Source: an uncultured Chloroflexia bacterium (GTDB lineage: Bacteria > Chloroflexota > Limnocylindria > Limnocylindrales > CSP1-4). From it: a DNA stretch of 64,000 nucleotides. The notes under the pieces are model-generated. The model was not told the DNA's origin, searched no databases, and saw only the letters and a list, made by a program, of their open reading frames with translations. The position numbers and the translations under genes are program-made. Shown piece after piece: positions 2,502 through 59,485 of this stretch. Position 1 is the first letter of the stretch, and every line of letters begins with the position of its first letter. The stretch covers positions 117,866 to 181,865 of the forward strand of contig CAWDEW010000013.1 of NCBI GenBank assembly GCA_963801445.1. The letters run 5' to 3'.

Positions 2502-2506
2502 GCGAG

Positions 2507-4153
2507 ATGCCCGCCGCGGCCCGGCCCATCCGCCGCCGCGTGATCACGGAGGAAGCCCACGATGGCCCTTTCCGCGCTTCCGCGTACGTGTGCGAGGCCG
2601 CGAGCTGCATGTCGGCGCAGTCCCACGAGATCACCACGAGCCTGAGCGAGCGCGTCGCCGAAGCCGGCCTGGGCGACGTGGTCGTCAAGCGCGTCGGCTG
2701 CCTCGGCCTGTGCGCGGCCGGCCCGCTCGTCGAGATTCCCCAGACCGGCCAGCTCTTCGAGCGCGTCCGGCCCGACGATCTCGCAGGGGTCCTCAAGGCC
2801 CTCAGGAAGGTGAAGGCGACCGACGCGCGCAGGCCGCAGGGCCCGTTCTTCGAGAAGCAGGTCCGGGTGGCCACCGAGAACATGGGCCGGATCGATCCCG
2901 AGAGCCTCGACGACTACCTCGAGCGGGGCGGGTACGAGGCCCTCCGCAAGGTTCTCGCGGACATGACCTCCACCTCGGTCCGCGAGGAGATCACCCGCAG
3001 TGGCCTGCGCGGCCGCGGCGGCGCCGGATACCCGACGGGCCTGAAGTGGACGACGGTCGCCAAGGCCGCCGGCGCGAAGAAGTACGTGATCTGCAACGCT
3101 GACGAGGGCGACCCCGGCGCGTTCATGGACCGGAGCGTCCTGGAGAGCGACCCGTATCGCGTCCTCGAGGGGATGGCCATCGCGGCCTTCGCCGTGCATG
3201 CCACCGAGGGCTACATCTACTGCCGGGCGGAGTACCCGCTGGCGGTTGCCCGCCTCCGGACCGCGATCCGCAACGCCCAGCGCGCCGGGTACCTGGGGGC
3301 CGGCATCGCCGACACCTCGTTCACCTTCGACGTGCAGATCCGGCTCGGCGCCGGCGCCTTCGTGTGCGGCGAGGAGACCGCCCTGATCGCGTCGGTCGAG
3401 GGTCGGCGCGGGACCCCCCGGCCGCGTCCGCCGTACCCCGCGGTCGAGGGCCTGTGGGGCTGCCCCACCCTGATCAACAACGTCGAGACCTTCGCGAACG
3501 TGCCCGCGATCATCCGCAGGGGCGCCGAGTGGTACGCCGGGATCGGCGTCGGCAAGAGCAAGGGCACCAAGGTCTTCGCCCTGGCCGGTCGCATCGTCAA
3601 CACCGGCCTGGTCGAGGTTCCGATGGGGATGACCCTCCGGGAGATCATCTACGACATCGGCGGCGGGATCGTGGACGGCCGTCCGTTCAAGGCGGTTCAG
3701 ACCGGCGGCCCGTCGGGCGGGTGCATCCCCGCCGACCTCCTGGACATGTCGGTCAGCTACGAGTCGCTCATCGAGGCCGGCTCGTTCATGGGATCGGGCG
3801 GCATGATCGTGATGGATGACACGTCGTGCATGGTCGACGTCGCCAAGTACTTCCAGGACTTCTGCCGCGACGAGTCGTGCGGCAAGTGCGTCCCCTGCCG
3901 GGTCGGCACGACCCAGATGTACATGCTCCTCGACTCGATCACCCGGGGCGAGGCGACCCTCGAGTCCCTCGCCCAGCTGGAGCGGCTGGCCGGGATCGTC
4001 CAGCGCATGTCGCTGTGCGGGCTCGGCCAGGGGGCACCGAACCCGATCTTCAGCACGCTGCGCTACTTCCGGGACGAGTACCTCGCCCACATCGTGGACA
4101 GGGTCTGCCCCGCCGGCGTGTGCACGATCACGCCGGTGGAGGTGCTGGCATGA
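2507..4153 (+). CDS. hoxF: Hydrogenase diaphorase subunit HoxF (NuoF-like; FMN/NAD-binding, 4Fe-4S)
   Basis: NuoF motifs GRGGAGYPTG, GAGAFVCGEETALIASVEG and CGKCVPCRVG. The start follows hoxE closely. Confidence 0.9.
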   Translation: MPAAARPIRRRVITEEAHDGPFRASAYVCEAASCMSAQSHEITTSLSERVAEAGLGDVVVKRVGCLGLCAAGPLVEIPQTGQLFERVRPDDLAGVLKALRKVKATDARRPQGPFFEKQVRVATENMGRIDPESLDDYLERGGYEALRKVLADMTSTSVREEITRSGLRGRGGAGYPTGLKWTTVAKAAGAKKYVICNADEGDPGAFMDRSVLESDPYRVLEGMAIAAFAVHATEGYIYCRAEYPLAVARLRTAIRNAQRAGYLGAGIADTSFTFDVQIRLGAGAFVCGEETALIASVEGRRGTPRPRPPYPAVEGLWGCPTLINNVETFANVPAIIRRGAEWYAGIGVGKSKGTKVFALAGRIVNTGLVEVPMGMTLREIIYDIGGGIVDGRPFKAVQTGGPSGGCIPADLLDMSVSYESLIEAGSFMGSGGMIVMDDTSCMVDVAKYFQDFCRDESCGKCVPCRVGTTQMYMLLDSITRGEATLESLAQLERLAGIVQRMSLCGLGQGAPNPIFSTLRYFRDEYLAHIVDRVCPAGVCTITPVEVLA

Positions 4154-4866
4154 GCGCCGTCTTCACGTTCCGGATCGACGGCCGGGACGTCGCGGGTGCG
4201 GAAGGCCAGACCATCACGGAGGTGGCCGAGGAGAACGGGATCGACATCCCGGGCCTCTGCCACCTCGAGGGGATCCACGACCGGGGCGCCTGCCGCCTGT
4301 GCATGGTCGAGATCGCCGGTTCCCCGAAGCTGGCCGCGGCCTGCATGACGAAGGTCGCCGAGGGGATGGACGTCACGGCCCATTCCGAGGGCCTCCTCGA
4401 ATACCGCCGGGCGGTCACCGAGATGCTGTTCGTGGAGCGCAACCACGTCTGCGCGGTCTGCGTCGCGAACAACCATTGCGAGCTGCAGGACCTCGCCGAG
4501 GACCTGGAGCTCACCCACTTCGACCTTCCCCGGATCAGCCCGCTCGTCGGGATCGACGCGAGCCACCGGCTCTTCGCCATCGACCACAACCGCTGCATCC
4601 TGTGCCTCCGCTGCGTCCGCGTGTGCGACGAGATCGAGGGCGCCCACACCTGGGACGTCATGCACCGGGGCCTCGAGACCCGGGTCCAGACGGACATGGG
4701 CATCCCGTGGGGCGAATCCCCGACCTGCACGAGCTGCGGCAAGTGCGTCCAGGTCTGCCCGACCGGCGCCCTCTTCGAGAAGGGCCGCCCGGTTGCCGGC
4801 GGCAGCAAGAACAAGCGCCCCTTCCTGCCCTGGCTGAAGGTCGTGCAGGAGGAGCGCGGGCTGTGA
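4150..4866 (+). CDS. hoxU: Hydrogenase diaphorase subunit HoxU (NuoG-like 2Fe-2S/4Fe-4S ferredoxin)
   Basis: N-terminal 2Fe-2S motif (CHLEGIHDRGACRLCMVEI) plus several CxxC clusters (CAVCVANNHCE, CILCLRCVRVC, CTSCGKCVQVC). ATGA overlap with hoxF. Confidence 0.85.
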   Translation: MSAVFTFRIDGRDVAGAEGQTITEVAEENGIDIPGLCHLEGIHDRGACRLCMVEIAGSPKLAAACMTKVAEGMDVTAHSEGLLEYRRAVTEMLFVERNHVCAVCVANNHCELQDLAEDLELTHFDLPRISPLVGIDASHRLFAIDHNRCILCLRCVRVCDEIEGAHTWDVMHRGLETRVQTDMGIPWGESPTCTSCGKCVQVCPTGALFEKGRPVAGGSKNKRPFLPWLKVVQEERGL

Positions 4867-5393
4867 GCAGGCCGCGGATCGCGACGGTCTGGCTGGACGG
4901 CTGCTCGGGCTGCCACATGTCGCTCCTCGACCTCGACGAGCGCCTGCTCGACATCTTCGAGCGGGCCGACCTCGTCTTCAGCCCGCTCGTCGACTGCAAG
5001 GAGTACCCGGAGGACGTGGACGTCTGCCTCGTCGAAGGGGCAGTTTCGAGCACGGACGACCTCGAACGGATCCTGATGGTCCGGGAGCGGACGAAGACGA
5101 TCGTCGCCTTCGGCGACTGCGCGGTCACGTCCAACGTCCCGGGCATGCGCAACCCCATCGGGCCGCTGCCGCTCCTGGAACGGGCGTACCTGGAGAACGT
5201 GACGATCAACCCGATGATCCCGGACCAGGTCGTCCCGAGGCTGCTGCCCACGGTTCGACCGGTCCACCGGGTGGTGAAGGTGGACGTCTTCCTGCCCGGC
5301 TGCCCACCTTCCGCCGACCTCATCTACACGCTGCTCGACGACCTGCTGGCCGGTCGCGTCCCGGACGCGGCGGGCGCCCGGTTCGGCCGCTGA
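4863..5393 (+). CDS. hoxY: [NiFe] hydrogenase small subunit HoxY
   Basis: VWLDGCSGCHMSLLDL and FGDCA small-subunit motifs. GTG start overlaps the hoxU stop. Confidence 0.85.
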   Translation: MSRPRIATVWLDGCSGCHMSLLDLDERLLDIFERADLVFSPLVDCKEYPEDVDVCLVEGAVSSTDDLERILMVRERTKTIVAFGDCAVTSNVPGMRNPIGPLPLLERAYLENVTINPMIPDQVVPRLLPTVRPVHRVVKVDVFLPGCPPSADLIYTLLDDLLAGRVPDAAGARFGR

Positions 5394-5403
5394 CGGGAGC
5401 CCC

Positions 5404-6825
5404 ATGAGCCAGACCATCGTCATCGACCCGGTCACCCGGATCGAAGGCCACTCCAGGATCACGATCCAGCTCGACGAGCGCGGCGAGGTCGTCGACGCCC
5501 GCTTCCACGTCACCCAGTTCCGCGGCTTCGAGCGGATCACCCAGGGCCGCCCGGTCCACGAGATGCCGGCGATCATGGCCCGCATCTGCGGCATCTGCCC
5601 GGTGAGCCACCTGATCGCGTCGTCCAAGGCGGTCGACGACATCCTGGCCGTCGAGCCGTCGCCAACCGGCGCGGACCTGCGCCGGATCATCAACCTGGGC
5701 CAGATCGTCCAGTCGAATGCCCTGTCGTTCTTCCACCTGTCCTCGCCGGACCTGCTGTTCGGATTCGACGCGGACCCGGCCGAGCGGAACATCGTCGCCC
5801 TGGCCCGGGCGAACCCGCAGCTGGCCAGGGACGGCATCGGCCTCCGCAAGTGGGGCCAGCAGATCATCGAGTGGGTGGGCGGCAAGCGCATCCACCCCAC
5901 CTGGATCGTGCCCGGGGGCGTGGCGGAGCCGCTGACCGCCGAGGTCCGTGACCGGATCCTCGCCGGCGTGCCCGAGGCGCTCGCGGCCGTGGAGCGGGCG
6001 ATCGCCTGGTACAAGACGGACATGCTCCGCTGGGAGGAGGAGGCCGCGACGTTCGGCAACTTCCGCTCGGCGTTCATGGGCCTCGTCGACCGCCAGGGCA
6101 ACGTCGACCACTACGGCGGCTGGCTCCGGGTCGTCGACGCCGACGGCAACTACCTCGCCGACAGGATCGACCCGAAGCTCTTCAACGACTACATCGGCGA
6201 GGCCGTCGAGCCCTGGACGTTCCTCAAGACGACCTACTGGAAGCCGATGGGCTACCCGGACGGCATCTATCGCGTGGGGCCGCTGGCGCGGCTCAACGTG
6301 GCCGACCGGATGGGCACGCCGCGCGCCGACGAGGAGCTCCAGAAGTTCCGCTGGCGCGTGGGTCGCGTGGCGGGCTCGTCGTTCCACTACCACTACGCCC
6401 GCCTCATCGACACGCTCCACGGCATCGAGAAGATCGAGGAGCTCCTGCGGGGCCCGGAGATCCTCTCGAAGCACGTCCGCTCCCGGGCCGAGGTCAACCG
6501 GCGCGAGGGAATCGGCGTCGCCGAAGCGCCCCGGGGCACCCTGATGCACCACTACCGGGTGGACGACGACGGCATCGTCGAGTGGGCGAACCTGATCATC
6601 GCCACCGGCCACAACAACATGGCCATGAATCGAGCCGTCCTCCAGGTCGCCCGACACCACGTCAAGGGCGACGCGCTCACCGAGCCGATGCTCAATCGCG
6701 TGGAGGCGGTCATCCGCTGCTACGACCCCTGCCTCAGCTGCTCCACCCACGCCCTGGGCGAGATGCCGCTGCGGATCCAGCTGCTGGGCCCCGACGGCAC
6801 CGTCCTCGACGAGCTGGCCCGGTGA
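5404..6825 (+). CDS. hoxH: [NiFe] hydrogenase large subunit HoxH (group 3d)
   Basis: N-terminal RICGICPVSH and C-terminal DPCLSCSTH Ni-binding motifs. A C-terminal extension follows the His, as expected for endopeptidase processing. Confidence 0.9.
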   Translation: MSQTIVIDPVTRIEGHSRITIQLDERGEVVDARFHVTQFRGFERITQGRPVHEMPAIMARICGICPVSHLIASSKAVDDILAVEPSPTGADLRRIINLGQIVQSNALSFFHLSSPDLLFGFDADPAERNIVALARANPQLARDGIGLRKWGQQIIEWVGGKRIHPTWIVPGGVAEPLTAEVRDRILAGVPEALAAVERAIAWYKTDMLRWEEEAATFGNFRSAFMGLVDRQGNVDHYGGWLRVVDADGNYLADRIDPKLFNDYIGEAVEPWTFLKTTYWKPMGYPDGIYRVGPLARLNVADRMGTPRADEELQKFRWRVGRVAGSSFHYHYARLIDTLHGIEKIEELLRGPEILSKHVRSRAEVNRREGIGVAEAPRGTLMHHYRVDDDGIVEWANLIIATGHNNMAMNRAVLQVARHHVKGDALTEPMLNRVEAVIRCYDPCLSCSTHALGEMPLRIQLLGPDGTVLDELAR

Positions 6826-7397
6826 GAGCCGGCGAGGCCCGCACGTCACGGGCGGGCACGCCTGGTGAGCGCGGGTCGAGCGCGGGCCCGCGCGGTTGCG
6901 CCGGGGTCCTCGTCGTTGGCTACGGCAGTGTGCTGCGCGGTGACGACGCGCTGGGCTGGCACGCCGTGGCGCGCCTCGCCCGGGACCCGCGGCTGGACGG
7001 TGCCCGCGTCTCCTGGACGCACCAGCTGACCCCGGAGCTGGCCGACGAGATCGCCGGTTGCTCGCTCCTGGTCCTGGTCGACGCAGCGGCCGGCACGGTT
7101 CCCGGCGCGCTCCAGGTCCGGCGCCTGGGCTCGGCCGGTGCGGGCAGTGCGGCCGGCGCGAGGGGTGCCGCAGGCGCGGCGGGTAGGCCCGGCGCGGCCC
7201 TGACCCACCATGTGGCACCGGAGAGCCTGCTCGGCCTCGCCCGGGAGCTGTACGGTTCCGCACCCGAAGCGTGGGTCGTGAGCGTCGGCGCAGCTGGGTT
7301 GGACATCGGGGACGGCCTGTCACCCGCCGTCGAGGCAGCGCTGCCGGCCGTGATCGATGCCGTTGCCGGCATCATCGGAAGGCGCGTCCATGCATGA
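6822..7397 (+). CDS. hoxW: Hydrogenase maturation endopeptidase (HoxW/HycI family); start uncertain
   Basis: VLVVGYGSVLRGDDALGWH matches the HybD/HoxW N-terminal motif. GTGA overlap with the hoxH stop. Contains a Gly/Ala-rich insertion. Confidence 0.7.
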   Translation: MRAGEARTSRAGTPGERGSSAGPRGCAGVLVVGYGSVLRGDDALGWHAVARLARDPRLDGARVSWTHQLTPELADEIAGCSLLVLVDAAAGTVPGALQVRRLGSAGAGSAAGARGAAGAAGRPGAALTHHVAPESLLGLARELYGSAPEAWVVSVGAAGLDIGDGLSPAVEAALPAVIDAVAGIIGRRVHA

Positions 7398-7731
7398 GGT
7401 CTCGCTGGTCGCCGACCTGATCGGCGAGGTCCGCAGGCGGGCCGGCGGCGCGCCGGTGGAGCAGATCCGGGTCCGCCACGCAACGACGATCCCGGACGAT
7501 GTGGTGCGCCAGGCGTTCACGCTGCTGACCCAGGGCGACCCGCTGGCCCTTGCCGCGCTCGAGGTCGAGCCGTTCGAGATCCGCCTCGCCTGCCCGTGCG
7601 GATTCGACGGCCCGCTCGGCCACGACGACGTGGTCGGCGCGACGATGGTCGTCTGCCCCTCGTGCGGGGAGCTCCGGCGGACGCCCCCGACCTCGGAGCT
7701 GGAGCTCCTGGAGGTTCGAACCGGCTCCTGA
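7390..7731 (+). CDS. hypA: Hydrogenase nickel-incorporation protein HypA
   Basis: MHEVSL N-terminus and a CPCG...CPSCG zinc-ribbon, as in HypA/HybF. Overlaps the hoxW 3' end. Confidence 0.8.
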   Translation: MHEVSLVADLIGEVRRRAGGAPVEQIRVRHATTIPDDVVRQAFTLLTQGDPLALAALEVEPFEIRLACPCGFDGPLGHDDVVGATMVVCPSCGELRRTPPTSELELLEVRTGS

Positions 7732-7799
7732 GGTGGCCCCGGGTCGCCGGCCTCGGGCGGCCCGGGCGCGGGTGCCTTCGGAGCGAGCTCCGGAAATGC

Positions 7800-8046
7800 G
7801 ATGCCTTGCGCCGCATCACTGGCGCGGTCGGCGGGCGCCTGGGCGGATCTGAGCGCAGGCGCGGCATCGCCGGTTCGGCCGGCGGAGATGGTCCTTCTGA
7901 AACGCGATGCCTTGCGCGGCATCACTGGCGCTGTCGGCGGGCGCCTGGGCGGATCTGAGCGCAGGCGCGGCATCGCCGGTTCGGCCGGCGGGAGATGGTC
8001 CTTCTGAAACGCGATGCCTTGCGCGGCATCACCGACGTGGTCGGCC
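7800..8046. repeat. Tandem direct repeat, unit ~106 bp, ~2.3 copies; each unit begins with the hairpin gatgccttgcgc(g/c)gcatc
   Basis: Units at approximately 7800-7905 and 7906-8012, plus a partial unit from ~8013. They are near-identical, differing by a 1-nt indel and a few substitutions. The repeat sits between hypA and the next gene. Confidence 0.8.
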
Positions 8047-8069
8047 GGGCACAGGGGTTCGGAGCGCGC

Positions 8070-9027
8070 CTACGGGGCGGCGTGGAGCTCGGCGATAGGC
8101 CATTCGCTCTCGGGCGTCGTGACGACGTCGTTGAACGCAGACGGGGCGCCGGGCGTGGGCGCGGGGACCTTCAGCCCGAGGTAGTCGATCCCTGTCGCAG
8201 GGTCCGTGAAGAAGTACCCGTCCAGGGAGCCCCCCGCCATCGAAGTTGGGAACGACCACCAGCTGTCCTCGTGGAACGTGGGACAGCTGCCATCTGCCCG
8301 ATGGACGACCCCGTTCTCGCCGATGTGCCCGACCAGCGAGAAGGTCAGCAGGGCGAACGGCCCTCCCGAGGTGGTCGGCGCCGGGGCGCTCTCGTCGACG
8401 ATCAGCTGGATCGTCGCCGTTTCCTCGACGCTCGGGTTCCAGGTGGGCGCCGCCCCGAATCCGAAGCCGCCCTCGCCCGTGTAGGCCTCCGTCCACTTCG
8501 TGCAGTCGGTGCCCTGGGCGAACCCGGTCCCGTGGATCGACCACGAGCCCGCGTCATCCACCCAGACGGTCCGGGTGGCGTCCGATTGCGCCGGATCGAC
8601 CTTGAGTCGCACGTTCATGTCCCCGGCAACCTCGTGCGTCTTCGCCAGCCCATCCTGCTCCGTGGTCGCGTAGCGCTCGAGATAGATCACCGTCCCGGTC
8701 AACAGGGTGGGCAGGTGTCCCGACCAGCTCGTCGGGACCGGCCGCAGCGACGCGCCGGAGGACGCCCCGGGCGAGGACCCCGACGAGGAGCCAGGGGTGC
8801 CTGCAGGGGTCTCCCCGGGCGACGCCGCGAGCGAGCTGGTCGGTCCGGGTGCGCCGACCGCTCGCGCCGCCGACCCCACCAGCTCGGGTCGGGGCCGGCG
8901 TGCCGCTCGAGCCGCCCGGAGGTCCGGCCCCGCCCTGGCTCCCGGCCGGGGATCCGCCGGCGCACCCGGCGATCGAGAGGGCGGCCATCCAGGCTATCCA
9001 CGAACGGCCGGGGACACGTCGCGACAT
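8070..9027 (-). pseudogene. Putative lipoprotein whose signal peptide and mature domain lie in different frames (frameshift, or sequencing error in a G-run)
   Basis: The frame starting at 9027 encodes MSRRVPGRSWIAWMAALSIAGCAGG (signal plus lipobox) and then turns Arg-rich nonsense. The frame of ORF 8070..8879 encodes a plausible Gly/Ser/Pro linker and a globular domain but has no signal peptide. Confidence 0.4.
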
Positions 9028-9265
9028 GGCGACCTCGGGCTGATCGCGCCGGGAGGTTCGAGGCGACCAACGGTATCGCCTGCGCCCGCGGTGTCAACAG
9101 GCGGCCCGCCATCCGGCGGCTTGCGAACGGCAGCCTCGCAACCGCCGGTCCCACGCCCGGGCGGGGGGGCCACTTGCGCCCCCGTCGTACACTCCCATAC
9201 CGGTCGAGCGGGTGCGTGCCACGGGGACGCGCGCGGTGGCCGGAGCACGAGGCGTGCGAACGACG

Positions 9266-10204
9266 ATGGCACGATCCATGTGGCGCGGGGCGATCCAGTT
9301 CGGGCTCGTGACGATCCCGGTCCGGCTCTACCTCGCGACGGACTCCCACGGGATCTCGTTCAACATGCTCCACGAGAGCTGTCTGAACCGGATCCAGATG
9401 AAGACCTACTGCCCGTTCCACGACGAGGTCATCTCGCGCGGCGACACCATCAAGGGGTTCGAGTACGCGAAGGACCAGTACGTCGTCATCACCGACGAGG
9501 ACCTGGCGAACGTCCCGCTGAAGACGGTGCGCTCGATCGAGATCGAGAAGTTCGTGCCGGCCGCCGCCAGGCAGGACGAGCCCGTCCGCTTCGTGAAGCA
9601 GGCCTACTACGTCGAGCCGGAGGCGATCGGCCGCAAGGCGTACGCGCTCCTCCGCGAGGTCCTCGCCGAGCAGGGCCTGGCCGCGGTGTGCAAGGTCGTG
9701 ATCAAGGATCGCGAGGCACTGGCCTCGCTGAATCCGCAGGGCAACGCGCTGGTCCTCGAGACGCTCCATTGGCCGGACGAGATTCGGGCGACCCAGGAGC
9801 TGGACCTCCCGGCCGACGATATCGAGGTGAAGCCGGCGGAGCGGGCCATGGCGGCCCAGCTGATCGCGGCGATGACGGGCGAGTTCGACCCGGCCGAGTA
9901 CCGGGACGAGTACCGCCAGGCGCTCCAGCAGGTGATCGAGGCCAAGGTCGAGGGGCGCGAGGTCGCCGAGCCGGCCGAGCCCGCCGCGGGCGGCCAGCTG
10001 GTGGACCTGATGGCCGCCCTGGAGGCGTCCGTCAACGCGGCCCGGGCAGCCCGGGCCGCGGGCGCCGTCCCGGAGGCCGCGCCGGCACCGGTGAAGGTGG
10101 CTCGCGCCGGGCGTGCGTCCAGGGCGTCCGCCCCGTCCGACGCGGCGGACGCCGTCGACGAGGATGCCGCCCCGCGCAGGATGGCGCGCCGCAAGTCCGC
10201 CTGA
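9266..10204 (+). CDS. ku: NHEJ DNA end-binding protein Ku
   Basis: MARSMWRGAIQFGLVTIPVRLY is the canonical bacterial Ku N-terminus. Sits directly upstream of ligD. Confidence 0.9.
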   Translation: MARSMWRGAIQFGLVTIPVRLYLATDSHGISFNMLHESCLNRIQMKTYCPFHDEVISRGDTIKGFEYAKDQYVVITDEDLANVPLKTVRSIEIEKFVPAAARQDEPVRFVKQAYYVEPEAIGRKAYALLREVLAEQGLAAVCKVVIKDREALASLNPQGNALVLETLHWPDEIRATQELDLPADDIEVKPAERAMAAQLIAAMTGEFDPAEYRDEYRQALQQVIEAKVEGREVAEPAEPAAGGQLVDLMAALEASVNAARAARAAGAVPEAAPAPVKVARAGRASRASAPSDAADAVDEDAAPRRMARRKSA

Positions 10205-10256
10205 CCGGACCTCGGGCGCGCGAGACGCCGCGGCGCTGCGGCCGCATCATGGGGCC

Positions 10257-10976
10257 GTGACGCGCGAACGCCTCCCGCTCGACTTCGGCCTGACCGCCTC
10301 GCGCCTGCCGGAACGCATCGAGGCCATGCGTCCGACCGACGGCGATGGCCCGTTCGACGATCCCGGCTACTTCTTCGAGCCGTGGTGGCCGGGCATCCGG
10401 GCCCTGGTGCTCGTCGAGGCGGGTCGAGTCCGTCTCCGTGCACAGGCACTGACGGACCCGACGACCGCCTTCCCGGAGCTTGCGGCGCTGCCCGGGTTGC
10501 TGGCCGGGGACGGGGTCGTGCTCGATGCGACGCTCATGGTGCTCGACGCCCGGGGCCGTCCGAGCGCCCGGCTCCTCGAGGCGCGACTGCGCGGTGGCGC
10601 GGAGGCCGCGGAACGCGCCGACGCGGCGCCGGCGCCGGGGGTCGAGCATCCCGGGCAGGCCGCCCTGGTCGCGGGCGACCTCGTCTACCTCGGCGGACGG
10701 TCACTGGCGGCGCGCTCGTTCGGGGAGCGCCGGGGCGAGCTGGCGGCCCTGATGACCCCCAGCCCCTGGTGCCTGCCCGGGCGCGGGTTCGTCGGCGACG
10801 GCCTCGCGGTCGCCGAGGCGCTGGGATCGCTGGGCTTCCGGGCGCTCTCGGCCCGGCGCCTCGACGCGCGCCTCCGCCAGGGTCCAGCGGGTGACGCCTG
10901 GTTCCGCGTCCCGGTCCGTGCGTCCGCGCGCACGCTTCCGCCATTCCTGGCCGTCATCCAGCGCCTTCCACTCTGA
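10257..10976 (+). CDS. LigD ligase-domain paralog with all nucleotidyltransferase catalytic residues substituted (putative pseudoligase); alternative start 10326
   Basis: Aligns along its length to the ligase domain of the downstream LigD. Motif I FEPKWDGYRA becomes FEPWWPGIRA. Motif III DGEVV becomes DATLMV. Motif IV EGAMAK becomes LGSLGF. Motif V WLKLK becomes WFRVP. Confidence 0.7.
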   Translation: MTRERLPLDFGLTASRLPERIEAMRPTDGDGPFDDPGYFFEPWWPGIRALVLVEAGRVRLRAQALTDPTTAFPELAALPGLLAGDGVVLDATLMVLDARGRPSARLLEARLRGGAEAAERADAAPAPGVEHPGQAALVAGDLVYLGGRSLAARSFGERRGELAALMTPSPWCLPGRGFVGDGLAVAEALGSLGFRALSARRLDARLRQGPAGDAWFRVPVRASARTLPPFLAVIQRLPL

Positions 10977-10988
10977 GGCGAGACCCGC

Positions 10989-13877
10989 ATGCCGCTGGAC
11001 CGGTACCGCACACGGCGTGACTTCACGCGGACACCCGAGCCGGCGCCGGGGACCGTGGGGTCGTCCCCCGGACCGGGCGCCCCGGATCCGACCGCTCCAG
11101 GGGGCTGCGGTCGCTTCGTCGTGCACATGCACCGGGCCCGTCGCCTGCACTGGGACCTGCGCCTGGAGATCGACGGAGTCCTGGCCTCGTGGGCCATCCC
11201 GAAGGGCCCCACCCTGGACCCGGAGGAACGGCGCTTCGCGGCACGCACCGAGGACCACCCGATCGAGTACCTCGACTTCGAGGGCGTCATCCCGGCGGGC
11301 GAGTACGGGGCCGGCGACTCGATCTGCTGGGATTGGGGCACCTTCGAGCCGGAGCTCTCCTGGGATCCCGGGCAAGCGGTGCGCGACGGGGAGCTGAAGA
11401 TGCGCCTGCGCGGCGAGAAGCTGCGCGGGAGGTTCACCCTCGTGCGCACGGCCGGACGCGGCGGGGACGGAAGGGCGACGGGCGACGGGCGATCGCGCCG
11501 CTCACGGACGGACGCGGGCGGAGCGGAGGACGCGGGATCCGGCGAGGGCTGGCTGCTGATCGCCAAGCGCGACCCGGACTCGGTGGCCGGCTGGGACGCC
11601 GGCGACCACCCGGCGTCCGTGCGATCCGGCCTGACCAGCGCCGAGGTCGCCGCCGGCATGTCGCCGCGGTTCGTGCGCCCGGCCCCGGCGCCGCTGCCCT
11701 CGCTGGATGCCCCGGGCAGCCTGCGGGGCGTCCAGCCGACCACCCTGGCCCCGATGCTCGCGACGCCCGGCACGGCCCCGTTCGACGACGAGTCGTGGCT
11801 CTTCGAGCCCAAGTGGGACGGCTATCGCGCGCTCGCGATCGTGGCCGGGGGCAAGGTCCGCCTCGTGACCCGCAACGGCAACGATGCCGGTCGCTACTTC
11901 CCGGAGCTGCTCGGCCCGCCGGCCTGGCTGATGGCGCCCGACGCGATCGTGGATGGCGAGGTCGTGGCGTTCGACGAGGCGGGCCGCCCCGACTTCTCGC
12001 TCCTGCAGGCCCGGGTGGGCGGCGGATTCGGGCGCAGCGATCCGGGGCCCAGGCCGGAGGCCCGCGCGGCTGGCCAGGCGGCGCCGCTCCTGTTCATGGC
12101 CTTCGACCTGCCCTGGTGCGCCGGCCGATCGCTCGCGGGCGTGGCCCTCGAGGAGCGCAAGGCGATCCTGCGCCTGGTCCTGCGGGAGCATCCGCGCGTC
12201 CGCTACGGCGGGCACGTGGAGCGGGACGGCGTGGCGTTCTTCCGGGCGGCCGCCGAGCGCGGGCTGGAAGGCGCGATGGCGAAGCACCGGGCAAGCCGCT
12301 ACGAGCCGGGCCGCCGGTCTCCGGCCTGGCTCAAGCTGAAGGTCCGCCCCACCCAGGAGCTGGTCGTGGCGGGCCACGTCCCCGGGCAGGGCTCGCACCG
12401 CGACCTCGGGGCCCTCCTGGTGGGCCTGTTCGATGGTGGCACCCTGCGCTCCGTCGGCCGTGTCGGGAGCGGGATCGATGGGCCGATGCGAGCCCGGCTC
12501 CGGCGTGACCTGGATGCGCTCGCCCGCCCGACCATGTCGTTCGCGGCCCCAACCGCCGACCTGGCGGAGCTGGCCCGCACGCCGGAGGTCACCTGGGTCG
12601 ACCCGGTGCTGGTGATCCGCGCCGAGATCGGAGGCTGGACCCTGGACGGCAACATCCGCCAGGCCTCGTTCGTGGAGCTCGCCCGCGACGTGGACCCGGC
12701 CGCGGTCGAGCGCCAGGATGCCGTGGGTCCGGCAGCCGCCCAACGGGCCCTCGCGAAGTCCGGCCTCGGCTCGGGTCCCACCCGGGCCCCGGCAGTGCCC
12801 GGCCTGGCCTCGCGCCGAGGTGCGTCGCGCGAGTCGGTCGCGCCGGCCTCGGACCCGACTGCGCCGGCGGCGGTCGCGACGACGCTCCCACCTGCCCCGG
12901 TCGTGGCGGCGCCGGCCGTCGTCCTGACGGCCTCGGCCGCGGAGCTCGCGGCCCTCGAGGCGCTCCCGGCAGGCGGCGGGACCTGGAACCTTGCCGGGCG
13001 CGAGATTCGCCTCACGAACCTGGGCCGGGTCCTCGCGCCGGGCTCGGCGCCGGACGACCCACCGATCACGAAACGGGAGCTCATCCGATACCTGGTGGAG
13101 GCCGCGCCGCTCCTCCTCCCGCACCTTTCCGGCCGGGCCCTCAACCTGGCCCGCTACCCGGAGGGGATCGCCGGCGAATTGTTCTGGCAGAAGGACGTGC
13201 CGAAGGGGACGCCCGACTGGGTCGCCCGGTGGCGGGAGCCCGACCCGCCGGACCGCCGGGCGCACTCGTACGTGCTCGCGGACGAGGTCGCGGCGCTCGG
13301 CTGGCTCGGCAACCAGGCCGCCGTGGAGATCCACCCCTGGACGTCCCGGATCGAGGCGCCCGCCGAACCGCGCTGGGCCCTGATCGACATCGATCCGGGG
13401 ACGGCCACGACCTGGGACGAGGTGCTCGTGCTGGCCCGACTCTTCAGGCGCGCCCTGGAGCACCTGGGCGTCACCGGCGTCCCGAAGACGAGCGGCAAGC
13501 GGGGCCTCCAGGTCTTCATCCCGATCGGCCCCGGCTCGACGTTCGAGGCAACCCGGGGCTGGATCGAATTGCTCTCGCGGGCGGTCGGTGGAGCCGTCCC
13601 GGACCTCGTGAGCTGGGAGTGGGCGAAGGAGCGGCGGGGCGGCCGGGCGCGCCTCGACTTCACCCAGAACTGGCGGAACCGGACCCTGGTCGCCGCCTAC
13701 TCGCCGCGCCCGGCGCCCGGGCTGCCGGTCTCGGCGCCGATCACCTGGGCCGAGCTGGACGATCCGGAGCTGCGTCCCGACCGCTGGACGATCCGGACGA
13801 TCCTGGCCCGCGTCGGGGCCCGCGGCGACCTCTTTGCCGCCGCGCTCGGCCCGGACCAGGCCCTCCCGCCGCTCTGA
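10989..13877 (+). CDS. ligD: Multifunctional NHEJ DNA ligase LigD (phosphoesterase, ATP-dependent ligase, polymerase/primase domains)
   Basis: N-terminal phosphoesterase (RRDFTRTPEP, HMHRARRLHWDLRLE). Ligase motif I FEPKWDGYRA with motifs III, IV and V. C-terminal polymerase domain (LDFTQNW). Confidence 0.9.
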   Translation: MPLDRYRTRRDFTRTPEPAPGTVGSSPGPGAPDPTAPGGCGRFVVHMHRARRLHWDLRLEIDGVLASWAIPKGPTLDPEERRFAARTEDHPIEYLDFEGVIPAGEYGAGDSICWDWGTFEPELSWDPGQAVRDGELKMRLRGEKLRGRFTLVRTAGRGGDGRATGDGRSRRSRTDAGGAEDAGSGEGWLLIAKRDPDSVAGWDAGDHPASVRSGLTSAEVAAGMSPRFVRPAPAPLPSLDAPGSLRGVQPTTLAPMLATPGTAPFDDESWLFEPKWDGYRALAIVAGGKVRLVTRNGNDAGRYFPELLGPPAWLMAPDAIVDGEVVAFDEAGRPDFSLLQARVGGGFGRSDPGPRPEARAAGQAAPLLFMAFDLPWCAGRSLAGVALEERKAILRLVLREHPRVRYGGHVERDGVAFFRAAAERGLEGAMAKHRASRYEPGRRSPAWLKLKVRPTQELVVAGHVPGQGSHRDLGALLVGLFDGGTLRSVGRVGSGIDGPMRARLRRDLDALARPTMSFAAPTADLAELARTPEVTWVDPVLVIRAEIGGWTLDGNIRQASFVELARDVDPAAVERQDAVGPAAAQRALAKSGLGSGPTRAPAVPGLASRRGASRESVAPASDPTAPAAVATTLPPAPVVAAPAVVLTASAAELAALEALPAGGGTWNLAGREIRLTNLGRVLAPGSAPDDPPITKRELIRYLVEAAPLLLPHLSGRALNLARYPEGIAGELFWQKDVPKGTPDWVARWREPDPPDRRAHSYVLADEVAALGWLGNQAAVEIHPWTSRIEAPAEPRWALIDIDPGTATTWDEVLVLARLFRRALEHLGVTGVPKTSGKRGLQVFIPIGPGSTFEATRGWIELLSRAVGGAVPDLVSWEWAKERRGGRARLDFTQNWRNRTLVAAYSPRPAPGLPVSAPITWAELDDPELRPDRWTIRTILARVGARGDLFAAALGPDQALPPL

Positions 13878-13958
13878 ACGATCGCTCGTCTCGACGGCTG
13901 TAGGCGCCCGGTCCCCCGCTCGCCTACCATTGGGGCTCACCGATCGCACGGGGCCCCC

Positions 13959-16517
13959 ATGCCGCCAGCGCCGCTCACCCGCCGCTCCGCCTCTTCGGCG
14001 CTGGCGGCCGGCCCTCGCGCAGCGCGGCCGCTCGCGCGGCGCAGGCTCGCCAGCGGGCTCGTGGCGCTCGCCCTGCTCCTTCCGGGCACGCCCGGAGCGC
14101 TCGCGGCCGCGTCCCCTGCCCTGGCCGCGGCGGGATCGGCCCCCGGGATCGGCGCGACGGCCGGAGCGGCAGGCACGCTCACGTTGCCCCTCGGGCGCGG
14201 CACCGCCAGGCGAGTCACGACCCGGACGCCGGCGGTGCCGGGCGCGATCCGCCCGACGTCCCGGCCCTACCTCACGGTCGGCCCCGCCAGGGGCGCGGGC
14301 ACGGTGGCCGGGACTCCCCGAGCCGGCACCCCGGCCGGCCCGGTTCCGGCCGGCGGACCGGGCAGCCCGGTGGCGCCGCTGGCGGCGTTGCCCGGTCCCG
14401 GATCGCAGGCGGGCGCGACCTTCCTGGGCCTGACGGACCAGGCGAACGCCGCCTACCTGCCCGATTGCGGCACCACGCGGCCGTGCATCGAGCCGCCGGA
14501 CCCCTGGGTCGCCGTGAGCGCCACGTACGTGGTCCAGTCCGTGAACGGCGTGACCAGGGTCACCACGCGATCCGGCGGCCTCCCGAATCCGGGGGCTCCG
14601 ACGGCCGGCGTGAACAGCAACGCCGCCTGGTTCGGGCTCCCCGCGGACATGCTGGACGCCGATCCCCACGTGCTCTACGACGCGGCCCACGATCGCTGGA
14701 TCGCCACGTTGTTCGGCTACAGCTGCACGGCCGGGCGCCTCTACGTCGCGGTCTCCGCGGACGGAGCGCCGTACCCCCTCACGTCCGGGCCGGGTGGTCA
14801 CTGGAGCACGATCGAGCTGAACTTCGACGGGTCCGTGACCGGGCTTCCGGCCGGCATGCCGGACTTCCCGCTCGTCGGGTTGACGAGCTCCGTCGTCGGG
14901 ATCGGGATCAACGTCTTTGCGCGCGACCCGGCCGCCGTCGACCTCTGCGACGCGGTCTACCCACCCGTCTACGGTGGCGCGCAGCTTCTGGCGTTCGACC
15001 TGTCTGCGTTGGAGGGGACGGGGCCGATCCCCTACGCCTACACCGCACCATCGACGACCGTCTTCTCGTTCGCGCCCGCCCACGACGTCGGGGCCGGGAA
15101 CCGCCTCCACGTGGTGGCCGCCGGAGGCGGTGACTTCGCCAACCCGGCCACGATCCCGGCGGCGCCGACCGTCCTCTACGGGGCGCTCGACGGGCCGATC
15201 GGCGGGACCACCGGGGCGACGTCGATCACGATGACGACGCTGGACGGCGTCACCCTGGCCCAGCCACCCCCGCCGATCGACCCGGGCGGCAGCCTGGACT
15301 TCGCCGCGGACTTCCGGATCACGGACGCGACCTGGACAGCGGACCGCCTTGCGTTCCCGACGACCGGCATCTCGGGACCCGGCGGGCGACCGCGAGCCCG
15401 CGTGGTCGAGCTCGCAACCAACGCGGAGGGCGGTCCTGCCGGAGCCACGCTGGCCCAGGTCTTCACGCTCCAGCCGAGCGCCGGCTTCGGATACACGGAT
15501 ACGTTCGTGGCCGGTGTCGGATACGCCGCCGACGGCACCCTGTGGACCGCCTACAGCCAGTCGGGCCCGTCGGCCGCGATCTCGAGCTGGTCCCGCCGCC
15601 AGCGCCTCGTGGATCGCCCGGCGACCCTGCCCGCCGTGGACGCGCCCTTCTCGGCCGGTGCCGCCCTGCTCGCGACCGGTCGGGGCGGATACGGCGGGAT
15701 GAACAGTCGGTGGGGCGACTACGTCGGGGTCGCTCCCGATCCGGCCCCGGGGATGGAGGGGACCGTCTGGCAGGCCAACGAGTTCGCCGACCTGGCCGAG
15801 GGCTGGGCCACGCTTGCCTCGCAGCTCGGCGACGACACGGCGTCCCCGTCGATCCCGGGGCCGTTCTCGGTGGCCCTGGGAAATGGACGGGGGCTTCCGT
15901 CGCGGACCTCGATCCCGGTCACCGTCTCGTGGGGAGCGGCGACCGATGCCGGCAGCGGAATCGGCGCGTACCGCCTCCTCAGGCGCGTGAACGGCGGGGC
16001 GTGGGCAGCCGTCCCGCTGGGCTCCCCGACCGCGCGGTCGGTCACGGTCACGATGGCCTTCGGGGCCAGCTACCAGTTCCAGGTCAGCGCGACGGACAAC
16101 GCGGGCAACCCGGCAGGGCCGGCCCGGACGAGCCCGGCCTACCGGCCGACCTTCTACCGGCCCATCGCGAGCGCGTCCGTCGCCCTCGTCGGCTGGTGGG
16201 GGTGGGCAAGGTGCTCTCCCTGCGTCGGCGGCCGGCTCCGGTCCTCCTCGGTGCGGAACTCCCGGGTCACGCTCACCACCACGGCCTGGGCGATCGGCTG
16301 GGTGACGGTCCGCGGGCCAGCCCGTGGCTCCGCCCGGGTCTACCGCGACGGCGTGCTGCAAGGCGCCTACAGCCTGTACGCTCGCCTGAACCTGACCCGC
16401 TTCCTCGTCACCAGCCGGACGTTCCCGACGCTGGCCCGCCACAGCATGCGGGTCGTCGTCGTGGGCACGGCCGGTCACCCGCGGATCGACGTGGACGTGT
16501 TCATCGTCATCCGCTGA
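13959..16517 (+). CDS. Large secreted hypothetical protein with signal peptide and a C-terminal fibronectin-III-like module
   Basis: N-terminal hydrophobic signal (LVALALLLPGTPGALAAA). C-terminal VTVSWGAATDAGSGIGAYRLLRRVNGGAW...YQFQVSATDNAGN is FN3-like. Confidence 0.55.
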   Translation: MPPAPLTRRSASSALAAGPRAARPLARRRLASGLVALALLLPGTPGALAAASPALAAAGSAPGIGATAGAAGTLTLPLGRGTARRVTTRTPAVPGAIRPTSRPYLTVGPARGAGTVAGTPRAGTPAGPVPAGGPGSPVAPLAALPGPGSQAGATFLGLTDQANAAYLPDCGTTRPCIEPPDPWVAVSATYVVQSVNGVTRVTTRSGGLPNPGAPTAGVNSNAAWFGLPADMLDADPHVLYDAAHDRWIATLFGYSCTAGRLYVAVSADGAPYPLTSGPGGHWSTIELNFDGSVTGLPAGMPDFPLVGLTSSVVGIGINVFARDPAAVDLCDAVYPPVYGGAQLLAFDLSALEGTGPIPYAYTAPSTTVFSFAPAHDVGAGNRLHVVAAGGGDFANPATIPAAPTVLYGALDGPIGGTTGATSITMTTLDGVTLAQPPPPIDPGGSLDFAADFRITDATWTADRLAFPTTGISGPGGRPRARVVELATNAEGGPAGATLAQVFTLQPSAGFGYTDTFVAGVGYAADGTLWTAYSQSGPSAAISSWSRRQRLVDRPATLPAVDAPFSAGAALLATGRGGYGGMNSRWGDYVGVAPDPAPGMEGTVWQANEFADLAEGWATLASQLGDDTASPSIPGPFSVALGNGRGLPSRTSIPVTVSWGAATDAGSGIGAYRLLRRVNGGAWAAVPLGSPTARSVTVTMAFGASYQFQVSATDNAGNPAGPARTSPAYRPTFYRPIASASVALVGWWGWARCSPCVGGRLRSSSVRNSRVTLTTTAWAIGWVTVRGPARGSARVYRDGVLQGAYSLYARLNLTRFLVTSRTFPTLARHSMRVVVVGTAGHPRIDVDVFIVIR

Positions 16518-16718
16518 CCCGGTCCGGGCCGGCGCCGGCTGCCGCCGGTTCGCGAGGGGCACCGGGCGAGCGCTCCCGAAGTGCCGCGAATGGCGCCGCT
16601 CGGTGCCCGGTTCGACCCGCCCCTGCCGGCCGGCCCGCACGGGTGGCCCGGGGGGGCCCGCCCGGGGATGCCCGACGGCACTTGCTGCCTGGTGGGGTGC
16701 CCGGCGGAGACTGGGCAC

Positions 16719-17201
16719 ATGAACGAGACTGCCGCACTCATCGCAGCGTTGAACACGTCGTGGTTTGCGTCCGGTCTGAGCGAGAAGTCGCAGGCGCGCC
16801 TCGCGGAGCTCGGGCGGCGCTTCACCGCCGAGCCCGGGACGGAGCTCTTCAGGGAGGGTGAGCCCAGCGAGACCTTCGGCATCCTGGTCCACGGCCGCGT
16901 CGCGCTGCGGACCCTCGTCCCTGAGCGCGGCGACATCACGATCCTCACGGTCGAGCCGGGCGACGTCTACAGCTGGTCGGCGCTCGTCCCGCCGTACAAG
17001 GCCTCGTCCACCGGGACCGCGATCGAGCCAATCGAATCGATCGTCTTCGACGGCAACGCCCTGCGGGCGGCCCTCCGCGAGGATTGCGACCTGGCCAGGT
17101 CGCTCTACCCCCGCATCCTCGTCGCGGTCTCGCGGCGCCTCAACGCGACCCGGGTCCAGCTCCTTGACCTGTTCGCGGCCGAGCAGGTACGCGCGTGGTG
17201 A
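16719..17201 (+). CDS. Standalone cyclic-nucleotide-binding (CAP effector) domain protein
   Basis: A cNMP-binding beta-barrel (FREGEPSETFGILVHGRVAL...EPGDVYSWSAL) with no HTH or output domain. Its 3' end overlaps the start of the hydrogenase beta-gamma gene. Confidence 0.7.
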   Translation: MNETAALIAALNTSWFASGLSEKSQARLAELGRRFTAEPGTELFREGEPSETFGILVHGRVALRTLVPERGDITILTVEPGDVYSWSALVPPYKASSTGTAIEPIESIVFDGNALRAALREDCDLARSLYPRILVAVSRRLNATRVQLLDLFAAEQVRAW

Positions 17202-19186
17202 CGATGCGCTCCCAGGGGCGGGGCCAGCGTCCCGCCCTGGAAGGCCCCGGATACCTCGACCGTGCCGATCTCCAGGCTCTCTTCGACCTCCTTCGCGAGG
17301 ATGGCCGGCGACTCGTCGGCCCCACCATGGCCGATGGTTCGATCGTCTACGACGAGATCGCCTCGGTGGACGACCTTCCGCGCGGCTTCGGGGACGAGCA
17401 GGCGCCCGGCCGCTACCGGGTGCGCCGTCGCGGCGATGAGCGCCTCTTCGGCTTCGTGGTCGGCCCGACCGCGTGGAAGCGCTGGACATTTCCGCCGCTG
17501 GTGCAGCTGACCCATGCCACCCGCGACGGCCACCGCGTCTCCTTCGAGCCTGACGCGGCGGGGGTCCCGCTGCTCGCGTTCCTCGGCGTCCGCGCCTGCG
17601 ATCTCGCGGCGATCGGCGTCCAGGACCAGGTCTTCACCGGGGCGACCTTCGTCGACCCGGACTACCAGGCGCGCCGGGCGCGGGTCCTGGTGGTGGCCAC
17701 CCAGTGCATGACCGCCGCGTCGACCTGCTTCTGCACTTCGATGGGCACGGGCCCCGAGGTGACCTCCGGCTACGACATCCTGCTCACCGAGCTCGACAGC
17801 GGGTTCCTGGTCGAGGCGGATTCCGCCCCCGGCCGCGCGCTGCTCGAGCGGCTCCCGATCCGGCCGGCAACGGCCGTCGAACAGTACGGGGCGGCCGCCG
17901 CGGTCGCGGCGGTGCGCGCGAGGATCGGCGACCCGGTCCCGGCGGCAGGTCTCCACGACCGCCTCATGGCCCAGCTTGACCACCCGCGCTGGGCGCAGGT
18001 GGCCGAGCGCTGCATCACCTGCGGCAACTGCACGCTCGCCTGCCCGACCTGCTTCTGCACGACCCTCGGCCAGGCGACGGACCTCACCGGGGAGCGCGCG
18101 ACGACGACGCGAATCTGGGACAGCTGCTTCAGCCCCGGCTTCGCGAAGGTCGCCGGCGGCAGCTTCCGGGCCCGCCCGCGCGATCGCTACCGGCAATGGC
18201 TCACCCACAAGTTCGGCACCTGGTGGGACCAGTTCGGGCAATCCGGGTGCGTGGGCTGCGGCCGCTGCATCACCTGGTGCCCCGTCGGGATCGACGTTCG
18301 CGAGGAGCTCAACGCGATCGCCCCGTCCGTCCCGCTGTCCCCGGAGACGCCGCTGGTCCAACCGGTGGCCGCGACCCCGAACGACTTCGTGACCGCCCGC
18401 GTCGTGGCTACCAAGGCCGAGACGGTGGACACGACGACGCTGACCCTGACCGGCGTGGATCCCGCGTTCAGCAAGGGAAGCACCGGCCAGTTCGCGATGG
18501 TCTCCCTGCCCGGGTTCCCACCGCTCCCGATCTCGATCAGCCGGTTCCTCCCCGACGGCATCGAGCTGACCATCCGCGGTGCCGGACCCGCGACGCGCGC
18601 GATGTGCGCGCTCCAGGTCGGCGATCAGCTGGGCCTGCGCGGCCCGCTGGGCAACAACTGGCCGCTCGATCGGGCCGTCGGCCGCGACCTCGTGATCGTG
18701 ACCGGCGGGATCGGCCTCGCCCCGCTGCGCCCCGTCCTCCAGGCGATCGTGGCCGACCGTCGCCGGTTCGGCGACGTGATGCTGTTCTACGGCGCGCGGA
18801 CGCCCGGCGATCTGCTCTACCGGGACGAGCTGGAACGCTGGGCCAGCCGCCATGGAATTGAGGTGAGCCTGACGGTCGACCGCGCGGGGCCGGAATGGAC
18901 GGGCCGGGTCGGCATCGTGACCCACCTCTTCGACCAGGCCGCCTGGGACGGGACCAACATGATCGCGTTCGTGTGCGGCCCCGAGCGGATGATGCAGGCG
19001 ACGGCGACCACGCTGGCCGGCCGGGGCGTCCCGGCAACCCGGATCCACGTGACCCTGGAGCGCCACATGGAGTGCGGGATCGGGCTCTGCGGCCACTGCC
19101 AGATGGGCAAGTACTTCGTCTGTCGGGACGGGCCGGTCTTCTCGATCGCCCAGCTCGGCGACACCTTCGGCCGGGAGGGGATCTGA
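17195..19186 (+). CDS. Group 3b [NiFe] hydrogenase beta-gamma fusion: N-terminal 4Fe-4S subunit and C-terminal FAD/NAD(P)-binding subunit with a 2Fe-2S site
   Basis: The N-terminal half has CITCGNCTLACPTCFC and CVGCGRCITWCP (HydB/AsrA-like). The C-terminal half has a ferredoxin-NADP reductase fold (LVIVTGGIGLAPL) ending CGIGLCGHCQ (HydG/AsrB-like). Confidence 0.85.
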   Translation: MVTMRSQGRGQRPALEGPGYLDRADLQALFDLLREDGRRLVGPTMADGSIVYDEIASVDDLPRGFGDEQAPGRYRVRRRGDERLFGFVVGPTAWKRWTFPPLVQLTHATRDGHRVSFEPDAAGVPLLAFLGVRACDLAAIGVQDQVFTGATFVDPDYQARRARVLVVATQCMTAASTCFCTSMGTGPEVTSGYDILLTELDSGFLVEADSAPGRALLERLPIRPATAVEQYGAAAAVAAVRARIGDPVPAAGLHDRLMAQLDHPRWAQVAERCITCGNCTLACPTCFCTTLGQATDLTGERATTTRIWDSCFSPGFAKVAGGSFRARPRDRYRQWLTHKFGTWWDQFGQSGCVGCGRCITWCPVGIDVREELNAIAPSVPLSPETPLVQPVAATPNDFVTARVVATKAETVDTTTLTLTGVDPAFSKGSTGQFAMVSLPGFPPLPISISRFLPDGIELTIRGAGPATRAMCALQVGDQLGLRGPLGNNWPLDRAVGRDLVIVTGGIGLAPLRPVLQAIVADRRRFGDVMLFYGARTPGDLLYRDELERWASRHGIEVSLTVDRAGPEWTGRVGIVTHLFDQAAWDGTNMIAFVCGPERMMQATATTLAGRGVPATRIHVTLERHMECGIGLCGHCQMGKYFVCRDGPVFSIAQLGDTFGREGI

Positions 19187-21353: not shown

Positions 21354-21382
21354 CCGCGGCCACCGGGCCCGGGCCGTCGATC

Positions 21383-58372: not shown

Positions 58373-59485
<1,113 letters not shown>

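Follow-up and report, generated by a model that had tools for sequence, protein, structure and literature searches.

LigC-type ligases, which stand alone with a nucleotidyltransferase (NTase) and an OB domain, keep the KxDG motif and seal nicks, and XLF and PAXX are Ku-associated scaffolds that act as non-enzymatic factors of non-homologous end joining (NHEJ). Eukaryotic DNA ligase IV (Lig4) still supports end synapsis and repair when it is catalytically inactive (PMC3549972, PMC9638927, PMC10858965). Bacterial NHEJ is described as a minimal system of Ku and DNA ligase D (LigD) (PMC8656161, PMC12784962), in which the C-terminal region of Ku is a flexible tether for LigD (PMC12784962). The Ku core of Bacillus subtilis interacts specifically with LigD's ligase domain (LigDom; PMC13201618), and the C-terminus of Mycobacterium tuberculosis (Mtb) Ku touches the NTase residues D522, R567/T572, K579 and L580 as well as the POL domain (bioRxiv 10.64898/2025.12.12.693941). 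The stretch of DNA analysed here, called the window, comprises 64,000 nucleotides (nt) of contig CAWDEW010000013.1 (assembly GCA_963801445.1) from an uncultured Chloroflexia bacterium of the order Limnocylindrales. Between its ku and ligD genes lies a third gene, named X here, whose product is a paralogue of LigD's ligase NTase domain that has no OB domain and is, judged by its sequence, catalytically dead. We propose, with a probability of roughly 0.6, that X acts as a non-catalytic third subunit of end joining, a 'mini-LigD' with a structural or regulatory role. A full-text literature search, which included a LigD review and a comparative-genomics preprint, found no lysine-less ligase described in bacterial NHEJ, in agreement with what had been supposed when the locus was first read from its sequence alone, although such absence is not proof.

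X is colinear with amino acids (aa) 250-453 of the LigD encoded beside it, with 35% identity over 207 aa (BLASTP E 3e-27), a homology far beyond chance, and its top sequence match among solved structures is the Mtb LigD ligase domain (E ~5e-15). The sequence-only reading had extended this colinearity to the whole ligase domain. That is correct for the NTase half and incorrect for the OB half: X spans the NTase half alone, ends ~20 residues past motif V and has no match to the OB model PF04679. The same reading had seen tryptophan in place of the motif I lysine, threonine in place of the motif III glutamate, and loss of the catalytic residues of motifs IV and V; all of these replacements recur in the alignment to the window LigD, in hmmalign and in the comparison with Mtb LigD, where W43 of X aligns with K481, the adenylated lysine, and with K275 of the window LigD. 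At eight diagnostic positions (K, D and G of motif I, E of motif III, E and K of motif IV, and two K of motif V) the profile alignment reads KDGEEKKK in LigD and WPGTRRRP in X. X contains no lysine whatsoever, so that none is available for an enzyme-AMP adduct, and its sequence predicts neither self-adenylation nor nick sealing.

X has retained the PFDD pre-motif, as had also been read at the outset, along with the hydrophobic framework. The Mtb LigDom (PDB 1VS0, 6NHX, 6NHZ) and X are homologous and colinear, have the same predicted fold, are both encoded with ku, and share PFDD, FE.(K/W)W.G, FPEL, the D of FDLL, ERR and PG..W; unlike the Mtb protein, X has no motif I lysine, no catalytic residues in motifs III, IV and V, and no OB, PE or POL domain. 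Its scores of 16.1 bits against PF01068 (cut-off 26.2) and 54.6 against TIGR02779 (cut-off 227.75) fall below the ligase thresholds, so annotation pipelines leave it unnamed or label it LigD, and there is no family for X in Pfam, NCBIfam or PADLOC. PADLOC returned no match for X or Ku, on which ground X was rejected as a component of a defence system, and a mobile origin was likewise rejected after tblastn found no match to X in plasmid or phage collections.

The AlphaFold2 model of X (36-row alignment) has a pLDDT of 88.4 and a pTM of 0.82, with lower confidence in the first 10 residues, a variable loop at residues 111-130 and the last 19 residues. Foldseek matched the model to ligase adenylation domains of archaeal, human and Mtb origin (E ~1e-14 to 1e-11, TM 0.64-0.71), including Thermococcus ligases (E ~1e-14, TM ~0.7) and the Mtb LigD structures 1VS0 and 6NHX (TM 0.64-0.66, root-mean-square deviation 2.5-3.0 A, 27-28% identity). 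X is thus predicted to keep the ligase adenylation (NTase) fold, as the sequence-only reading had it. Such a core might bind a 5'-phosphate end or a nick and mark or protect it, a role as a DNA-end or nick sensor that was already among the earlier suggestions, and NTase domains do contact the nick in the Lig1 and Lig3 DNA complexes found among the fold matches. This role is improbable: X has no OB or DNA-binding domain and has lost the phosphate-contacting lysines, and net charge varies across the X family (isoelectric point 4.6 to 11.4), which speaks against a conserved DNA-binding surface. The retained fold could alternatively house another chemistry, based on a non-lysine nucleophile or on non-covalent nucleotide sensing, and the former pocket is indeed lined by a Trp pair and a new conserved block, SARRLDA/RGxxG[DE]G, of which SARRLDA is specific to the X family and overlaps the dead motif IV. 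A cryptic enzyme of this kind is nevertheless very hard to credit. In motifs I, III, IIIa, IV and V every contact to adenine, ribose or phosphate is replaced, and the deeper clade of X described below does not conserve the Arg of motif I. Nor would a redesigned active site be likely to accept W, S, D, R, N, L or A in place of the lysine, as sister lineages do.

Database searches identified 681 relatives of X at E<=0.001. The best 120 of these, referred to here as the close clusters, share 64-74% identity with X and, with one exception, cover 97-100% of its length. FEPWWPG occurs in 120/120 close clusters and the motif I lysine in none, as in the window copy; 94 of the 120 have no lysine at all. 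Pairwise Nei-Gojobori (NG86) estimates of dN/dS (omega), made on 15 genomes in which all genes are intact, were 0.09-0.24 for X; in the same genome pairs, ku and the three LigD domains gave 0.07-0.28. These values and the fixed FEPWWPG support the earlier contention that catalysis was lost selectively rather than through random decay, and X can be classed as a pseudoenzyme, with its catalytic residues lost, its fold kept and its sequence under purifying selection.

Scores below the Pfam and NCBIfam thresholds, together with the frameshifted appearance of some copies in metagenome-assembled genomes (MAGs), could have indicated a decaying ligD duplicate or an assembly or sequencing artefact. This explanation is refuted by an omega far below 1, by replacement residues that are invariant in 120 clusters and by the presence of X in >75 independent loci, as well as by the intact open reading frame (ORF), whose codon-position GC (0.82/0.58/0.88) has the coding pattern of ku and ligD. 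No single-indel correction is needed, or able, to restore the catalytic residues: one frame is colinear with LigD, and the other frames lack the coding GC pattern. Split, frameshift-like tblastn matches to X are found in MAG contigs L028, L031, L032, L034, L054, L056 and L057; ku or ligD matches are split as well in L034, L054 and L057, and also in L020, L022 and L027. The breaks in X therefore look like read errors, which points to read or assembly errors rather than pseudogenisation.

X was correctly placed by the sequence-only reading between ku and a complete PE-Lig-Pol LigD, all domains of which were found by Pfam (Table 1). The three ORFs lie on the same strand, with 52 nt between ku and X and 12 nt between X and ligD, and GAGG precedes the ligD ATG. 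A promoter and terminator scan, uninformative at the ~75% G+C of this region, picked up neither, and no terminator-like site lies between ku, X and ligD; given this and the short gaps, co-transcription of the three genes is likely. Ku, which binds DNA ends in NHEJ, has a conserved minimal C-terminal arm (LVDLMAALEASV) and a basic tail, and its start, MARSMWRG, agrees with its homologues. The longest ORF in the frame of X opens with a GTG at 10113, so that its first 92 nt lie within the 3' end of ku. Homologues of X begin with MTR..., at the equivalent of 10257, which supports the start used here, and the extension at window positions 10113-10256 is therefore probably not translated.

The sequence-only reading had made its case depend on whether X is conserved at equivalent loci in relatives, and it is. 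A one-genome-per-species scan, which was seeded with X-specific peptides and is thus biased to X-bearing genomes, yielded 59 loci with X, nearly all in MAGs labelled Chloroflexota or Candidatus Limnocylindria, and X lies directly 3' of ku in every one of them for which upstream sequence exists. Metagenomic loci were also fetched with Ku alone to counter the seeding bias. An ORF with FEPWWPG follows ku in 18/18 Ku-anchored loci of the lineage with enough downstream DNA, whereas nine loci with a Ku at 55-70% identity lack X and have a plain ku-ligD arrangement in which FE[IV]KWDG is intact. X is therefore specific to this lineage, yet fixed within it. Members of a closer clade (~53-74% identity to X) have the order ku-X-ligD, while in a deeper clade (41-53% identity to X) the ku-X pair is followed by convergent genes, with no ligD within 6 kb. 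The invariant linkage of X is thus to ku and not to ligD. All carriers found are uncultured. The deeper clade has in addition a LigB-type ligase 3-4 kb upstream of ku-X, in conserved order, and a PafBC-like HTH-WYL-WCX regulator and a CYTH-domain gene 2-4 kb downstream, located in L036 (Table 1) and at the equivalent position in L045.

Outside the NTase core X has two short terminal motifs. In the close clade the N-terminal motif has the consensus [ED][PQ]LPL[EQ]F, whose L, P, L and F are kept in 119-120 of the 120 close clusters; the deeper-clade consensus is EQLxLx[ILV]. The C-terminal tail runs up to the free C-terminus. Its close-clade ending is [FLI]RRLP[LF]-COOH, and that of the deeper clade is RPxLxL[IL]QRLPL; all 120 close clusters end in LP[LF], and a short helix is predicted at residues 229-235 (pLDDT ~70). 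Both motifs have likely counterparts in LigD. The linker before the ligase domain carries, ~20 aa before PMLAT, a motif with the consensus [PA]L[PAS][ST]LDPPG in nearly all intact LigDs of close-clade loci, and this linker reads AE[IV]DLS[AG]A in X-less relatives; the N-motif of X ([PQ]LPLEF or EQLDLSI) parallels it (PLP[ST]LD or AEIDLSA), with equal spacing to the PM anchor. The LigD tail, which in the window copy lies past the end of Pfam's Prim-Pol model, ends ...GPGQxLPxL at the stop codon in 29 of 30 recovered C-termini, the one in L060 being five residues longer, and its wider consensus is GDLFAPVLxLxQxLP, so that RPLLxLLQRLPL or RRLPL-COOH in X parallels APVLxLxQxLP or QxLPxL-COOH in LigD. 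Judged by resemblance and spacing, the linker and tail motifs of LigD look like the counterparts of the N-motif and tail of X, and X itself looks like a LigD pared to a ligase-module scaffold and two peptide motifs.

The N-motif raises the question of the beta sliding clamp, since X might be an adaptor that tethers Ku-bound ends or LigD to DnaN. Like the motifs of clamp partners such as Hda and Pol IV, it is a short hydrophobic motif in a flexible terminus, the low-confidence N-terminus of the model (pLDDT ~60); the clamp motif of Hda, 6-QLSLPL-11, lies in a flexible N-terminal loop (PMC5397184). The deeper-clade EQLxLx[ILV] and the motifs of the relatives P0187 (MPQLSLFPEG), P0155 (QLTLQL) and P0244 (QLPLAL) fit the hexapeptide consensus QLxLF / QLxLxL (PMC4564189), and a motif of the N-terminal type is present in 21/45 lysine-less and 2/71 lysine-bearing representatives of the profile search described below. 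Two genuine LigB-type ligases, P0335 and P0338 (DBD+NTase+OB, ~582 aa, catalytic motifs intact), end NQLSLFGDDES, a C-terminal textbook beta-clamp pentapeptide. The adaptor role is even so rather unlikely: the Gln is missing in the window copy (RLPLDF) and in 87/120 close clusters (PLPLEF), the LigD linker counterpart (PLPSLD, AEIDLSA) is unlike a clamp motif, no dnaN lies nearby, and the literature search found no paper tying LigD or Ku to the clamp. To our knowledge, no link between NHEJ and the clamp has been reported.

An exhaustive profile search placed X among further lysine-less LigD-like ligases. At E<1e-30 it returned only 23 representatives, which make up the X family proper. Of the best 150, the full catalytic signature is present in 71, and 45 are without the motif I lysine, a number raised by the use of dead sequences to build the query profile. 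Across X and its lysine-less relatives the lysine position is taken by W, S, D, R, N, L or A. P0254, P0147 and P0161 lie beside ku, the first two with ligD following, and P0155 lies between an ArsR-family gene and ligD (Table 1); these contexts, in Dormibacteria and on other metagenomic contigs, show that a dead ligase module beside ku and/or ligD is a recurring arrangement, of which X is the most reduced form. After its OB domain, P0155 ends in the same tail as X (RPLLALLQRLPL). P0254, P0147, P0161 and the likewise lysine-less P0187 (NTase+OB) share the architecture of LigC-like ligases, and they and X resemble these in being a single LigD-type module encoded apart from LigD; they differ in the replaced lysine, and X also in the missing OB domain. 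In a neighbour-joining tree the lysine-bearing ligases group together, as does the clade with W. A single origin of all lysine-less ligases is not established by this tree, for which support values were not recoverable, and the dead lineages are only 29-49% identical to one another, no higher than to true LigDs.

The search also brought up P0146, P0193, P0240, P0242 and P0223, short multi-domain LigD-like proteins of 450-576 aa. These are fusions in which a lysine-less, OB-less NTase joins a PE domain to a POL-like region that ends GDLFAPVL.L.Q.LP. The lysine is replaced by R in P0146, Q in P0193 and R in P0240, as read from full sequences; P0242 and P0223 were placed here from the motif table, and P0223 is without the GDLFAPVL.L.Q.LP ending. 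These proteins may be largely non-catalytic LigD paralogues.

A role for X as a non-enzymatic partner of Ku and LigD agrees with all of this evidence, and we infer it on the following lines. X would go back to a copy of LigD's ligase module from which the OB domain and all residues for adenylate transfer have disappeared. What X has retained is the NTase fold plus two short linear motifs like those of LigD, one ahead of the domain and the other at the extreme C-terminus. It would be made from one transcription unit with Ku, and in this clade with LigD too, and would dock on Ku at the surfaces that normally take the LigD ligase module. Docking on Ku is the most economical reading of the fixed ku-X adjacency, given that Ku is known to contact the ligase module of LigD. 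X might then stabilise or organise Ku-bound DNA ends, or set the number of LigD molecules engaged, without sealing DNA itself. This way of working would be comparable to the non-catalytic functions of Lig4, XLF and PAXX, although X has no homology to XRCC4, XLF or PAXX, and whereas Lig4 performs both jobs with one polypeptide, here a separate, dedicated dead paralogue would stand beside an active LigD.

The features by which X mimics LigD, including both terminal motifs, could also serve a decoy or brake, an inactive look-alike that competes with LigD for Ku and so holds mutagenic end joining in check, for instance during growth. X remains paired with ku where ligD lies elsewhere, and in Mtb the contacts of Ku with LigD domains have both stimulating and attenuating effects on LigD activities (bioRxiv 10.64898/2025.12.12.693941). 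The tight ku-X-ligD spacing, however, implies roughly stoichiometric co-expression, which would be unusual for a pure inhibitor, and a brake is a minority possibility that deserves to be kept in mind. A structural co-factor is favoured because X is encoded stoichiometrically in the operon and stays with ku where ligD is elsewhere.

Several points weigh against a structural partnership with Ku and LigD. The likenesses between the motifs of X and LigD are short, and could be convergent or inherited without function. The residues through which Mtb LigD contacts Ku (D522, R567, T572, K579 and L580) are not conserved in X; nor are they conserved among LigDs, and this comparison was set aside as uninformative since the positions vary in both alike. 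A role centred on LigD cannot be universal, given the deeper ku-X clade that has no ligD close by. P0187 and P0244 are not beside ku or ligD on their short contigs. Finally, computation cannot separate a scaffold from a brake, that is, help from restraint of joining.

Should X be a structural partner of Ku and LigD, a wider and quite tentative extension suggests itself. End joining in Limnocylindria might be a three-component system in which the dead ligase paralogue holds Ku-bound ends and positions or gates LigD, with OB-retaining versions in Dormibacteria and other Chloroflexota-like lineages. The two LigD-like peptides of X would then mark docking motifs, so far unrecognised, that LigD itself uses to bind Ku or a different ring-shaped partner, for instance the beta clamp.

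Table 1. Coordinates of the genes, domains, motifs and other features discussed; positions are those of the window unless an L number precedes them.
Feature	Position	Strand	Description
ku	9266-10204	+	312 aa; Pfam Ku 6.3e-41, TIGR02772 (bacterial Ku equivalog) 1.8e-82
X	10257-10976	+	239 aa, GTG start; OB-less dead paralogue of LigD ligase NTase domain
ligD	10989-13877	+	962 aa; complete PE-Lig-Pol DNA ligase D, catalytic motifs intact
X N-terminal motif	10266-10286	+	ERLPLDF, residues 4-10; translation
X motif I	10350-10403	+	Includes PFDD pre-motif; LigD FEPKWDGYRA, X FEPWWPGIRA; Trp43 for adenylated Lys, Pro45 for Asp
X motif III	10521-10547	+	LigD DGEVV, X DATLM (within LDATLMVLD); Thr92 for ribose-contacting Glu
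X motif IV	10836-10862	+	LigD LEGAMAKH, X FRALSARR (within FRALSARRL); Glu to Arg, Lys to Arg
X motif V	10896-10916	+	LigD AWLKLKV, X AWFRVPV; Lys to Arg, Lys to Pro
X C-terminal tail	10932-10973	+	TLPPFLAVIQRLPL, up to free C-terminus; translation
LigD PE domain	11124-11447	+	Pfam PF13298
LigD pre-ligase linker motif	11691-11708	+	PLPSLD; translation
LigD NTase domain	11751-12341	+	Pfam PF01068
LigD motif I	11802-11831	+	FEPKWDGYRA, catalytic lysine aa 275; translation
LigD OB domain	12399-12689	+	Pfam PF04679
LigD Prim-Pol domain	13068-13835	+	Pfam PF21686
LigD extreme C-terminal tail	13836-13874	+	AAALGPDQALPPL; translation
P0254 (named Candidatus Dormibacteria)	L063 7001-8065		K to N, NTase+OB; ku-P0254-ligD
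P0147	L064 3866-4990		K to R, NTase+OB; ku-P0147-ligD
P0161	L065 625-1683		K to D, NTase+OB; ku-P0161
P0155	L060 1585-2673		K to S, degenerate OB; ArsR-family gene, P0155, ligD
PafBC-like regulator	L036 9506-10540	-	HTH-WYL-WCX
NuoF/HoxF-like gene	2411-4153		
HypA	7357-7731		
Tandem repeat	7793-8050		106-bp unit
ORF 3' of ligD	13959-16517		852 aa
cNMP-binding protein	16581-17201		
Fe-S/NAD-binding subunit	17195-19186		
NiFe large subunit	20031-21353		
HycI protease	21302-21868		
tRNA-His (GTG)	32708-32783		
malK-III RNA motif	58270-58375		RF03009, 70.9 bits

The ku-X-ligD genes lie inside a [NiFe]-hydrogenase gene neighbourhood (window positions 2411-21868). In our reading, end joining and [NiFe]-hydrogenase are both tied to dormancy or persistence. 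Pfam has no match for the ORF directly 3' of ligD, whose N-terminus is Ala/Leu-rich and signal-peptide-like. The gap separating the HypA-like gene from the next one holds 2.4 tandem copies of a 106-bp unit (94% matches), which give rise to several spurious look-alike ORFs. A tRNA gene and an RNA motif lie further downstream in the window (Table 1).

There is a realistic chance that X will prove to be a true third component of NHEJ in bacteria. Since all the carriers found are uncultured, testing this will need heterologous reconstitution. The relatives in which W, S, D, R, N, L or A has replaced the lysine, with or without an OB domain, form a natural series on the non-ligating role of the ligase module, and the motifs common to X and LigD point to unstudied interaction peptides in LigD itself. 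If the proposed role is true, X would be the first dedicated non-enzymatic accessory factor of bacterial NHEJ, paralleling the structural role of ligase IV.

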